A stretch of 44,313 nucleotides of DNA from IMG/VR virus record IMGVR_UViG_2740892271_000004, one strand, 5' to 3'. The stretch is from a virus. Its lineage: Duplodnaviria > Heunggongvirae > Uroviricota > Caudoviricetes. Under the pieces are notes generated by a model. The model was not told where the DNA came from, made no database searches, and worked only from the letters and a program-made list of their open reading frames with translations. Of the stretch, positions 34,786-38,259 are shown one piece after another (the stretch's first letter is position 1; each line of letters opens with the position of its first letter). A program made the position numbers and the translations under genes.

Positions 34786-34870
34786 CGCTTTTTTGAATTT
34801 CCGCAAAACACATATTTTTCAGCGGTCGCTATTCTGACTCTGTTTAATTCAGAAACAGGCAGAAAAGACG

Positions 34871-36925
34871 ATGTCAGACTCCAAGTGGAAAATGCTCTCC
34901 GCCATGCCCGGAGAGTTTTCAGTCAAGGTTGCCGGTGGCACGGTGGCATTTATTGAAAGCCCTTTCCGCCCTTCGGGTAATAAAGGGGGGATCACCTTCG
35001 CAGACTGCGTGATCCGCTTCAGCACGAAAGAGCCATTATGGGTAATGCCGGTATCCGGTAATCCCAGTGCAGAAATCACCAGTTCAGGCGTGACTGGCAT
35101 CATTCCAATCACATCTGACGTGGCCGGAACGCTCACGCCCTCCGACTGGAATGCACCGGATAACGCCGGGCCTTCCGGTAGCACGAATGGCAGCAGTTCA
35201 GAGCCGGAATATTACTTTGTTGTCATTCTCGCGGGTCAGTCAAATGGCATGGCCTACGGCGAGGGGCTGCCGTTACCGGATTCGTTTGACCGCCCGGACC
35301 CACGCATTAAGCAACTGGCACGCCGCAGTACGGTAACGCCCAACGGTACGTCGTGTACATACAACGACATCATTCCGGCAGACCACTGCCTGCATGATGT
35401 TCAGGATATGAGCGGGATAAACCACCCGAAAGCTGATCTGGCAAAAGGCCAGTACGGGACTGTCGGTCAGGGGTTGCATATTGCCAAAAAACTGCTTCCC
35501 TATATCCCACAGAATGCCGGGATACTTCTGGTGCCCTGTTGTCGTGGCGGGTCAGCATTCACCACTGGAGCCGACGGCTCATTCAGTGAGGCCAGCGGTG
35601 CTTCCGCTGATTCTTCACGCTGGGGGGCCGGTAAACCTCTGTATCAGGACCTGGTAAGCCGCACCAAAGTCGCGCTGGCGAAAAACCCGAAAAACAAACT
35701 TCTGGCTGTGGTCTGGATGCAGGGAGAGGCAGACCTTGCCTCAGGAAGCCAGCAGCATAATAGTTTATTCACGGCCATGGTTCAGCAGTTCAGAACTGAC
35801 CTGGCTCCGCTTGCTGCGCAGTGCGTGAGTGGAAATGCCACCACGGTGCCGTGGATTTGCGGTGATACCACGTATTACTGGAAAAACGCTGGCACCGATA
35901 AATATGAGGCAGTATACGGTGGCTACAAAGGCAAGGAAGCACAGAAAATTTTCTTTGTACCGTTCCTGACGGATGAGAATGGACAGAGCACGCCAACGAA
36001 TGCTCCGGCGGAAGACCCGGATATTGTGGCTGTCGGGTATTACGGTGCAGCATCCCGAACCCAGGGCAGTTTTGTTTCGACACAGCGTGACAGCCATTTC
36101 AGCTCATGGGCACGCAGGGGCGTCATTTCAGACCGTCTGGCCTCAGCTATTATGCTCCATGCAGGGCGCACGGCTGAACTGATGCGTGGGCAGACCGTGA
36201 CACCACCGGATGAGAAGCCGTCACCTGATACACCATCAAAACCGTCCACGCCACCCGCAGACACCACGACGATGAGTACGCTATTTGCTTACCGGGCATC
36301 TGAGTCTGAAGGACGGTTGACACCACAGGGTTGGGCTGCCGGAGGTGGCAAGGCTCAAATCGTGGATGATGCCGGAGCCAGCGGGGGTAAGGCAATGAAA
36401 CTGACCAAGGAAACAGGAAGAGCCCCCTGGTACCTTGAGCATGATGCTGGTAATGGTGCGGACCTGCTGGGTAAAGGTGGTCTTGTCAGTTGTCGTTTTA
36501 AACTCGATGGCGCGCTTACGGCTAATCAGTACGCACTGGCGCTGTACTGGCCGGTTTCTGCCCTGCCGCAAGGGGTTACTCTGGAAGGAAATGCCGGTCA
36601 TAACCTGCTGGCATCGTTCTACGTACAGAGCGATGCCACAGACCTTAACGTGATGTATCACAAAGGAAACACGGCGCAGAACACGAAGCTGGGGTCATTC
36701 GGCGCATTTAATAACGAATGGCATACGCTGGGCTTCCGTTTTGCCGGTAACAACAGTATTGAGGTGACGCCGGTCATTGATGGTAAGGACGGGACACCAT
36801 TCATGCTGTCGCAGTCTCCGGTCGGCACGTTTACGGCAGACAAGTTGCGCGTGACCGATATCACTAAAAATGCGACTTACCCGGTACTGATTGACAGTAT
36901 CGTGGTGGAAGTGAATAACGCGTAA
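34871..36925 (+). CDS. SASA/SGNH-family carbohydrate O-acetylesterase (NanS-like) with C-terminal putative carbohydrate-binding domain; prophage cargo gene
   Basis: 684 aa; GQSNGMAYGEG (GQSN catalytic-serine motif) and VVWMQGEADL motif; lies between gin and com, where Mu has no gene. Confidence 0.7.
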   Translation: MSDSKWKMLSAMPGEFSVKVAGGTVAFIESPFRPSGNKGGITFADCVIRFSTKEPLWVMPVSGNPSAEITSSGVTGIIPITSDVAGTLTPSDWNAPDNAGPSGSTNGSSSEPEYYFVVILAGQSNGMAYGEGLPLPDSFDRPDPRIKQLARRSTVTPNGTSCTYNDIIPADHCLHDVQDMSGINHPKADLAKGQYGTVGQGLHIAKKLLPYIPQNAGILLVPCCRGGSAFTTGADGSFSEASGASADSSRWGAGKPLYQDLVSRTKVALAKNPKNKLLAVVWMQGEADLASGSQQHNSLFTAMVQQFRTDLAPLAAQCVSGNATTVPWICGDTTYYWKNAGTDKYEAVYGGYKGKEAQKIFFVPFLTDENGQSTPTNAPAEDPDIVAVGYYGAASRTQGSFVSTQRDSHFSSWARRGVISDRLASAIMLHAGRTAELMRGQTVTPPDEKPSPDTPSKPSTPPADTTTMSTLFAYRASESEGRLTPQGWAAGGGKAQIVDDAGASGGKAMKLTKETGRAPWYLEHDAGNGADLLGKGGLVSCRFKLDGALTANQYALALYWPVSALPQGVTLEGNAGHNLLASFYVQSDATDLNVMYHKGNTAQNTKLGSFGAFNNEWHTLGFRFAGNNSIEVTPVIDGKDGTPFMLSQSPVGTFTADKLRVTDITKNATYPVLIDSIVVEVNNA

Positions 36926-37070
36926 GCAGGATAAAAAAATGCCGCCGGTAAGGGAAAACAAGAAACCGGCGGCAAAAAGATCGTTATATCCAAAGCAAAA
37001 AATGCAGTGCACCTTTTTACCTAACAGATATTACCGGTGTCAACACCATGTCAATAATTGGGAGGGATAA

Positions 37071-37252
37071 TGACATTTTTACAGCTTATTTTATTGTATT
37101 TCTGCACGGCAGTATGTGCGTTATATCTGGTGAGTGGTGGTTATAAGGCCATCAGAAATTATGTTCGCCGCAAAATTGAGGACGCAGCAGCTGAAAAACT
37201 CAGTAAAACAGCGCAGGTAACTCCGCTCCCAAAAGACCCGACCCAGCCCTGA
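37071..37252 (+). CDS. Small membrane protein (one N-terminal TM helix)
   Basis: 60 aa MTFLQLILLYFCTAVCALYLVSGGYKAIRNY...; SD GGGAGGG before ATG 37071. Confidence 0.45.
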
Positions 37253-37287
37253 TTGCAGGGCTTTATTCCCGCATAAGGAGGATATAC

Positions 37288-37542
37288 ATGCCAGAAATTA
37301 AAGGCACCGTCACTGAAGACCTGGTAAAACAGGCACTGTATTCCGGTGAAGTAAATAAGTTGCTGAAAGCGCAGGTCCGCAAGGATTTTGAGGCACAAAT
37401 CGACACTTACGTTGATGAAGTGCTGGCAAAACTTATTGGGCCAGCAGTTGCGGCCAGTGATGCTGATAATGAGCCGAAAACCGACGCGCAGCCAGAGCAA
37501 CCAGACCCGGCTCAGCCCGGAACTGACAGTACCATGATGTAA
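37288..37542 (+). CDS. Hypothetical small acidic protein
   Basis: 84 aa; SD AAGGAGG before ATG 37288. Confidence 0.5.
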   Translation: MPEIKGTVTEDLVKQALYSGEVNKLLKAQVRKDFEAQIDTYVDEVLAKLIGPAVAASDADNEPKTDAQPEQPDPAQPGTDSTMM

Positions 37543-37709
37543 CAATACAAACCGGTGGTGTCCTCTGCCGGTTTGACACTAATGAAAACATCTTTGCCGC
37601 TATCCAGCCATATGTAATCGCTGGATAGTATTTCGTATTCAGAAATATAGCTGCTTATGGAGCAGTCAATCCTGCTTCCCCATCCGGGCAGGCAAATGAA
37701 CCGGTATCA

Positions 37710-38003
37710 TTAGTCCGATTCACGCTTTTGTAGAATCGTTCCCAGAATGCTATACAGCTCATTAGCCTGTTGCTCCATCATTGAGACGGAGGCTATACGG
37801 TGCAAAGTGATTTCAGGAGGTGGCACACCTCCATCTTCTTGCTGTGGAGGAAAAACATAAGATTTAATAAAAAAGTTGAAGCATATGAACTCTCCCGCAC
37901 TCGAACTGTATTTGCAGGCATCTGAATAATCGGAAAAATAATCATTATAGATTTCCGCATTTTCAATCATTTTTCGATTTCTCGTCGTTACATGATTGTC
38001 CAT
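37710..38003 (-). CDS. Hypothetical protein, AT-rich, divergent from com-mom
   Basis: 97 aa; SD AAGAGG 6 nt upstream of ATG at 38003. Confidence 0.5.
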   Translation of the reverse strand: MDNHVTTRNRKMIENAEIYNDYFSDYSDACKYSSSAGEFICFNFFIKSYVFPPQQEDGGVPPPEITLHRIASVSMMEQQANELYSILGTILQKRESD

Positions 38004-38126
38004 AGCAGCCTCTTACGCTGGCAATTAACCAATTGACTTCTATAAATTAGTTGATTTGTTTGCTTTGCGGTATTCAAATGTACAATCATTCAGCACTTAT
38101 GCGTTACAGCACCGTTTAAAATTAGT

Positions 38127-38212
38127 GATCAAACTCATAAATTTTCGCTAATGACATTTCGTGTTATTTGTTGTATCAATTAAATAAATCAAATCGATCG
38201 TTTTTGTCGATC
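38127..38212 (+). promoter_or_regulatory. Candidate mom promoter control region with three GATC (Dam) sites
   Basis: GATC at 38127-38130, 38196-38199, 38209-38212 within 90 bp upstream of com; Mu Pmom is Dam/OxyR controlled through upstream GATC sites. Confidence 0.5.
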
Positions 38213-38259
38213 GATTGAGTGATAAAGATATCAACAACAAAGCAGGAGGTTATGCGGCC

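Follow-up and report, generated by a model that had tools for sequence, protein, structure and literature searches.

This analysis concerns a block of four genes at the right end of a Mu-like transposable prophage, found in the IMG/VR virus record IMGVR_UViG_2740892271_000004 (Caudoviricetes), a stretch of 44,313 nucleotides that was analysed as a whole and that we refer to as the window. The block is an accessory module, conserved at the prophage right end in a common E. coli/Shigella Mu-like lineage and not specific to the strain, and its largest gene encodes what is, by its motifs and structural matches, a clear member of the characterised NanS/NanS-p family of sialate O-acetylesterases. 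With NanS-p esterases, pathogenic E. coli feeds on the O-acetylated sialic acids of gut mucus. The new element here is the N-terminus of the protein, where the capsid-binding DUF1737 domain is swapped for an unrelated (predicted) beta domain that is restricted to Mu-like prophages. Synthesising these findings, we consider it likely that the block works as a conserved three-part module, made up of a NanS-p-type esterase, the two companion genes DUF1378 and DUF826, and a ‘variable slot’, with a sialate O-acetylesterase mechanism.

The block, positions 34786-38259, is the exact interval from the stop codon of gin to the start codon of com (3474 bp; coordinates of all features are collected in Table 1). 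Phage Mu (AF083977) has the same order of gin, com and mom, and its GATC stretch upstream of com aligns with that of the window, but its gin-com gap measures only 94 bp and contains the late promoter Pmom alone; that Mu is without the block had been recognised in the first-pass annotation of this DNA. The interval holds an open reading frame (ORF) of 684 amino acids (aa), two small ORFs on the plus strand and one on the minus strand (orf97). These are genes and not chance ORFs, with Pfam E-values of 1e-13 to 1e-68 (orf97 being without a Pfam match), a ratio of nonsynonymous to synonymous polymorphism (pN/pS) well under 1 in every part of the block, and identical DNA in complete E. coli genomes, in which RefSeq annotates the same genes.

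The esterase, its N-terminal domain and its companion genes

Within the 684-aa protein Pfam finds SASA at aa 117-312 (E 1.5e-13) and DUF6645 at aa 533-650 (E 7.4e-68). Both have structural counterparts: aa 110-428 align with the E. coli sialate 9-O-acetylesterase NanS (PDB 3PT5, E 1.8e-117), and aa 469-683 match the crystallised C-terminal domain of a NanS-p (PDB 6YP6, E 7e-98). From aa 98 to 684 the protein is 89% identical, over 587 aa, to P0030, a lambdoid NanS-p of the DUF1737 type, and it is 66% identical, over 592 aa, to L0105 of the Shiga toxin (Stx) 2 phage 933W. The motif set of SASA-type enzymes, SGNH hydrolases of the CE6 type, comprises GQSN with the catalytic Ser in block I, a Gly in block II, (H/M)QGE in block III and a His in block V (PMC9487903, PMC10462455); the corresponding motifs here are GQSN at aa 122, CCRGGS at 223, MQGE at 283 (part of a WMQGEAD string at aa 282) and, at 408, SHFSS, which contains the block V His. 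In a residue-by-residue alignment to 3PT5 the GQSN, the QGE and the block V His are conserved, and on this comparison the active site (Ser/His plus QGE) is intact. The first-pass annotation had called the protein a SASA/SGNH esterase and its C-terminal domain non-catalytic, and this part of it is borne out, down to the catalytic residues.

The C-terminal domain is lectin-like. Four aromatic residues proposed to bind sugar in the lectin site of vb_24B_21, namely Y510, Y515, Y540 and F611, numbered on the equal-length 933W homologue (PMC10462455), are kept in the window protein as Y554, Y559, Y584 and F654. Because motifs, structure matches and lectin residues together place the protein in the NanS-p family, the earlier statement that its function cannot be read from sequence was mistaken. 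Compared with chromosomal NanS (YjhS; 3PT5), the catalytic domain is alike, but NanS is a single-domain protein of ~330 aa, to which the window protein adds N- and C-terminal domains. With the NanS-p of lambdoid and Stx phages it shares the SASA motif blocks, DUF6645 with its aromatic site residues, flexible linkers, and the lack of a signal peptide, a hydropathy check having found no hydrophobic N-terminus.

Where the two part company is in the N-terminal ~100 aa, which fall outside the known NanS-p architecture and were overlooked in the first-pass annotation. Lambdoid and Stx-phage NanS-p carry DUF1737 at this position; in the window protein Pfam gives no match to it up to E 0.1, and hhalign a probability of 0.7%. 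DUF1737 consists of one helix and three strands, as against the all-beta fold predicted for the N-domain here, and in gp84 of phi24B it forms a hexamer, seen by electron cryo-microscopy (cryo-EM), that is plugged into the capsid hexons, making the esterase a capsid decoration protein (bioRxiv 10.64898/2026.04.10.717836); the window protein is without this domain. Homologues split cleanly into those of the DUF1737 type (647-650 aa) and those with the N-terminus described here (678-691 aa). When 1.84 billion cluster representatives were searched exhaustively with phmmer, the N-domain itself and one relative of 30% identity were returned, nothing else; this relative lies directly downstream of gin in a distant Mu-like prophage, and is also fused to a NanS-type esterase. 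A word-indexed search for homologues gave fragments only, two scans of GTDB species representatives gave no match, a metagenome scan recovered the same two allele classes only, and elsewhere in the prophage there is no paralogue. Purifying selection acts on the domain (pN 0.23, pS 0.77). We found no description of a NanS-p from a Mu-like prophage in the literature, of which our coverage was partial, so an earlier mention of the N-terminal variant is possible.

The gene is also a mosaic, as the domain-by-domain identities in Table 1 make plain, with a breakpoint in the first linker near aa 98, at the start of the 89%-identity alignment to the lambdoid NanS-p. In a further relative (L047, E. coli STEC299, 2464-4596) the N-domain is 99% and the catalytic domain 88% identical to those of the window, with the lectin domain at just 33%, from which we conclude that the C-terminal module was replaced independently; on these identities, the three modules of the esterase recombine independently across phage families. 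That the body is exchanged with lambdoid prophages, whilst the N-domain is kept in its Mu context, would fit a role of this domain specific to the Mu-like phage, such as docking to the virion.

The two small plus-strand genes that follow, which the first-pass annotation had left anonymous, belong to the families DUF1378 and DUF826, and have the same order behind nanS-p in Stx phages, 933W among them. In 933W itself, L0105 (nanS-p) is followed by a DUF1378 ORF, a DUF826 ORF and then the holin gene S, and Pascal et al. report members of both families in the stretch from nanS-p to S (PMC10462455). The spacing of the trio is similar, with intergenic gaps of 134 and 40 nt in 933W and of 144 and 35 nt in the window, and the identity to the 933W counterparts is 53% for DUF1378 and 39% (E 3e-16) for DUF826. 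As had been noted, one of the two small proteins has a single transmembrane (TM) segment: the 19-residue Kyte-Doolittle hydropathy of the DUF1378 protein is 2.27 at aa 3-21, and GGGAGGG stands upstream of its ATG. Across a phage collection, the esterase is present in 347 records and DUF826 of the 933W type in 306, with taxon breakdowns that are nearly alike.

The setting of this trio differs between phage types. In lambdoid phages nanS-p is part of a late operon under Q antitermination, with stx on one side and the holin gene on the other (in 933W the layout is stx-nanS-p-S-R), whereas in the window a transposable Mu-like prophage carries it at its right end, in the interval from gin to Pmom, with the lysis genes ~25 kb away from DUF1378 and DUF826. 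The two small genes thus stay by the esterase and not by the lysis genes, which suggests that they are functionally linked to the enzyme rather than to lysis. P2-like phages (vB_EcoM-569R5, for example) also place a homologous esterase in a myovirus, but theirs keeps DUF1737 and comes directly after the lysis genes.

Distribution within the Mu-like lineage

Loci with the N-domain number 34 among IMG/VR viral contigs, with 17 in the metagenome scan, and all are in this Mu-like lineage. Every one of the 34 that bears flanks shows the same order: baseplate J, gp48, tail fibre, fibre assembly, gin (where present), esterase, DUF1378, DUF826, the slot (variable in content), com and mom. Of 5426 complete E. 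coli genomes, 226 have this type of com-mom at a coverage of at least 80%; a good many of these are O157:H7, O111 or other E. coli that make Shiga toxin (STEC), and at least 192 of the 226 carry the block; the window-type cassette occurs in 25 complete genomes, and the type represented by a second Mu-like allele, L004, in 167. Among relatives the flanks (baseplate J, com, mom) are 92-100% identical, and the cassette alleles far less so, at 60% for the N-domain, 64-70% for the catalytic domain and as little as 33-40% for the lectin domain. Cassette alleles so deeply diverged, at one position and between near-identical flanks, indicate that the module is an old resident of the lineage.

The first-pass annotation had seen a peculiar insertion in one prophage; it is instead standard right-end content of the E. 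coli/Shigella Mu-like lineage, in deeply diverged alleles. That annotation had also asked whether the same genes might sit here in most Mu-like phages and have a known structural role. As to position, they do so in this lineage as a whole and are absent from Mu; as to role, a structural one is on record for the lambdoid homologue only, and there through a domain that is missing here. The module of NanS-p esterase, DUF1378 and DUF826 is already well known from Stx and other lambdoid prophages, and current understanding is not overturned, the block having turned out more ordinary than it first appeared. What can now be added is that it forms a fixed feature of a widespread Mu-like lineage, common in O157:H7, O111, other STEC and Shigella, such that surveys seeking nanS-p solely beside stx in lambdoid prophages would miss the Mu-like copy.

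Two further variations were seen around the block in relatives. The prophages of E. coli M3 and S1-CAM-01-A (L002, L003) are without gin and part of the invertible segment, but retain ~100 bp of the gin 3' end, and are therefore deletion derivatives with the tail fibre fixed in one orientation. In E. coli 89-3156 (L043, 23272-24478), and also in H100 and H101, a DNA cytosine methyltransferase of ~350 aa replaces mom behind com; these relatives, unlike Mu, thus have a different DNA-modification enzyme behind the same com gene.

Proposed mechanism and competing explanations

Lambdoid NanS-p are active esterases on Neu5,9Ac2 and mucin that support growth on O-acetylated sialic acid, and their genes are induced together with the phage late genes (PMC8065619, PMC10462455). 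We propose that the window enzyme would, in the same manner, strip 9-O-acetyl groups from O-acetylated sialic acids, either free or on mucin glycans, with the C-terminal lectin domain serving to keep it on the glycan. Since it has no signal peptide, its release from the cell would come only at lysis by the induced prophage, as free enzyme or attached to the virion, and the de-acetylated sialic acid might then be used by sialidases and by the surviving lysogen population. In this scheme it is the substrate, the timing of expression, the release by lysis and any role of the N-domain or the small proteins that we infer.

A number of points weigh against this proposal. Published esterase activity is limited to lambdoid NanS-p and NanS (PMC8065619), the Mu-type protein being assigned by its sequence. 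Block V reads RDSH here, as against RSSH or RASH in the NanS and NanS-p described (PMC10462455); the RDSH variant is also present in lambdoid P0030. The proposal does not account for DUF1378 and DUF826, families without known function, or for the N-terminal domain; and the assignment of a promoter, set out below, hangs on a single short motif.

It is this N-terminal domain that gives rise to an extension of the proposal, one that does not exclude it, whereby the beta domain would dock the esterase and lectin on the Mu-like capsid or tail, and the enzyme's main job would be to help the particle to bind or move through sialylated mucus. The domain stands in the position of DUF1737 (which in phi24B forms the capsid hexamer), ahead of a disordered linker; it is found only in Mu-like prophages, even in a distant one at 30% identity; it has been retained under purifying selection while the catalytic and lectin modules were swapped with lambdoid alleles (88-93% identity of the body to P0030); and a possible late promoter lies upstream. 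Set against this, NanS-p of the DUF1737 type also occur in P2-like myoviruses, so that a new chassis needs no obvious new anchor, and a small beta-sandwich might just as well serve as an additional module for glycan binding. Across eight related prophages the N-domain allele class co-varies with the adjacent gin only. None of the virion proteins tracks it: identity of the major capsid protein is 97-100% in all of them, and the sheath, the protease and an HI1506-like protein vary independently. On balance we regard display on the virion as possible but rather doubtful. The broader notion, that NanS-p are modular virion-displayed mucus enzymes with an N-terminal anchor matched to the phage type, and DUF1378 and DUF826 their dedicated travelling helpers, we put forward still more tentatively. 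The swapped domain does make it possible to test directly whether NanS-p enzymes are displayed on virions in general.

Other explanations depart further from deacetylation of host sialic acids as proposed above. Reviewers have raised, as an open possibility for NanS-p, a target on the bacterial surface (PMC8065619), be it O-antigen or a polysialic-acid capsule, with the enzyme aiding adsorption or changing the lysogen's surface so as to exclude phages, and the gene does adjoin the tail-fibre and invertible host-range genes. However, the nearest relatives of the catalytic domain are enzymes characterised on sialic acid, the protein has neither signal peptide nor membrane anchor for reaching the lysogen's own surface, and the catalytic and lectin modules are common to lambdoid phages with quite different receptors, all of which makes this improbable. 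The framing of the first-pass annotation, namely recent and strain-specific cargo in the form of an unrelated block that landed between gin and com, draws on the absence of the block from Mu and probably from SfMu, whose gin-mom product in the polymerase chain reaction (PCR) is reported as only 1.5 kb. It draws too on base composition, a claim that held for the small ORFs (40-50% GC; DUF1378 44.8%, DUF826 50.2%, orf97 39.8%, against 57.8% in the tail and baseplate genes) but only marginally for the esterase (54.9%), and on the 89% identity of the esterase body to lambdoid alleles, a mark of recent exchange. Yet all related prophages examined have the module at this one position, as deeply diverged alleles within well-conserved flanks, and the distant Mu-like prophage has the same fusion of N-domain and esterase just downstream of gin; the recent event is an exchange of modules within the gene and not the arrival of the block, and we find the cargo explanation quite improbable. 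Finally, the right ends of temperate phages often hold defence or anti-defence genes, and the slot beside Pmom is variable, with an orphan in orf97; but a metabolic or virion-associated module known from Stx phages accounts for three of the four genes. PADLOC matched neither the esterase nor DUF1378 nor orf97, and DUF826 at chance level only (PbeC, E 0.0076), in agreement with the earlier remark that no named defence system can be recognised; a defence island was rejected on these grounds, and we see it as highly improbable.

Expression signals, the variable slot and the wider prophage

A degenerate 16-mer, TGAAKTYCCGCAAAAC, has two mismatch-free matches in the window, one upstream of the esterase gene (34794-34809) and the other at 18826-18841, 33 nt upstream of the protease/scaffold gene I. 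The annotated late promoter PI of Mu holds CCCGCAAAC, likewise 33 nt from gene I, and the diverged relative L043 has a related element, CTGAAnTnnCGCAAAAy, at both places; over an extended 30 nt, 21 positions agree between the two copies in the window, counted by eye. This 16-nt pattern may be the core element of late promoters in this phage group, and its placement suggests a PI-like late promoter for the cassette, which would parallel the late expression of lambdoid nanS-p. A scan for sigma-70 promoters and terminators gave counts not above shuffled expectation, with no convincing example of either between gin and the esterase.

Table 1. Features of the gin-com interval and its flanks, with identities of the esterase segments to a lambdoid NanS-p (P0030) and to a second Mu-like allele (L004).
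Feature	Positions	Strand	Basis or remark	Identity to P0030	Identity to L004
gin (serine invertase), left flank	34213-34785	+	Resolvase E 1.6e-51 and HTH_7; phrog_125 DNA invertase		
Candidate Mu-type late-promoter element, TGAATTTCCGCAAAAC	34794-34809	+	Inferred; 61 nt upstream of esterase start		
Leader hairpin CTGTTT-AATTCAG-AAACAG, before start codon	34840-34858	+	Direct sequence reading		
NanS-p-type sialate O-acetylesterase gene, 684 aa	34871-36925	+	SASA and DUF6645; phrog_143 E 1.7e-296; RefSeq WP_001284083.1		
N-terminal domain, aa 1-80, all-beta (predicted), specific to Mu-like prophages, in place of DUF1737	34871-35110	+		Not homologous	61%
Ser/Gly/Pro-rich linker, aa 81-112, with mosaic breakpoint	35111-35206	+	aa 82-107 mostly below 50 in the predicted local distance difference test (pLDDT)		
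SASA/SGNH catalytic domain, aa 113-432	35207-36166	+	Four motifs; 3PT5 alignment	88%	69%
Pro/Thr/Ser-rich linker 2, aa 433-468	36167-36274	+		94%	29%
Lectin-like jelly-roll domain, aa 469-684, putative carbohydrate-binding module	36275-36925	+	DUF6645; 6YP6	93%	74%
GC-rich hairpin after esterase stop, GCCGCCGGT...ACCGGCGGC	36941-36973	.	Direct sequence reading		
DUF1378 gene, 60 aa, single N-terminal TM segment	37070-37252	+	DUF1378 E 1.2e-31; phrog_494		
DUF826 gene, 84 aa, soluble, acidic tail	37288-37542	+	DUF826 E 6e-16; phrog_311 E 5e-28		
orf97, 97-aa orphan ORF	37710-38003	-	Convergent with DUF826, divergent from com		
GATC-containing stretch, right boundary of block	38190-38216	+	Aligns upstream of Mu Pmom (Mu and L004 alignment)		
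com, right flank	38260-38460	+	Zn_ribbon_Com E 1.3e-12; RefSeq annotation of identical DNA		
mom, right flank	38414-39151	+	Mom E 1.6e-77; RefSeq annotation of identical DNA		

Two hairpins frame the esterase gene. An equivalent of the inverted repeat in the leader is retained in the diverged L004 and L036 alleles. The hairpin after the stop codon has an A-run upstream, hence a T-run on the minus strand, and is terminator-like for that strand only; the terminator scan of the plus strand did not call it. A similar hairpin apparently follows nanS-p in 933W, judged from the ORF translation only. At the right boundary of the block, the alignment of the GATC stretch with Mu places the module upstream of the mom control region, which is left undisturbed. 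In Mu, the GATC sites upstream of Pmom mediate Dam/OxyR control.

Among relatives, what fills the slot that separates DUF826 from the mom control region (window 37543-38259) is variable. In the window it is occupied by orf97, for which the first-pass annotation had rightly noted a good Shine-Dalgarno sequence (AAGAGG, 5 nt upstream of the ATG); orf97 is found in some relatives only, others having a 154-aa ORF on the minus strand (L050 19814-20278) or a 66-aa ORF on the plus strand (L049 20648-20848), and none of the three has a Pfam match. Searches with orf97 in PHROG, NCBIfam, PADLOC and PDB, and by tblastn in phage genomes, were also without a match; homologues were found only in E. coli and Shigella, at identities of at least 79%. 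It is probably a real gene, because comparison with an 80%-identical homologue shows the reading frame preserved and an omega of ~0.36. The AlphaFold2 model is poor (pLDDT 62), too weak for a fold search. In short, orf97 is a lineage-restricted orphan, and nothing ties it to the esterase module.

As for the wider prophage, its Mu-like character is evident from the MuA transposase (1857-3944), MuB (4018-4959) and the gpT major head protein (20008-20955), together with Mu-type baseplate and tail genes, an invertible tail-fibre segment, gin, com and mom. Compared with eight relatives (L043-L050) the virion module is 94-100% identical, save for four mosaic hot spots (18875-20008, 20999-21358, 22338-24118), these being the protease/scaffold (73-98%), the HI1506/FluMu-like protein after the capsid gene (71-100%, of variable length), DUF2635 and the tail sheath (71-99%). 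In several relatives RefSeq annotates a ‘tRNA-OTHER’ on the minus strand, between the head-morphogenesis and virion-morphogenesis genes (window ~18103-18223; L043 3188-3267); ARAGORN and Rfam scans of the window for transfer and other non-coding RNAs found nothing, including at this position. One genome that carries the identical cassette (L044, NZ_AP045820.1) has an insertion sequence of the IS66 family, ISEc43, interrupting the DNA-circularization gene (11770-14186), and this prophage copy is therefore defective; the gene is intact in the window.

To the right of the prophage end lie an IS66 transposase fragment (39370-39828), lambdoid-type tail-fibre remnants (39882-42120), in which a stretch of 26-31% GC is included around 41000-42500, and, on the minus strand at 42300-44015, a 571-aa type III effector E3 ligase of the IpaH-like kind, with leucine-rich repeats and an NEL domain. 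This content points to Shigella or enteroinvasive E. coli as the background, with the prophage inserted beside an older prophage remnant.

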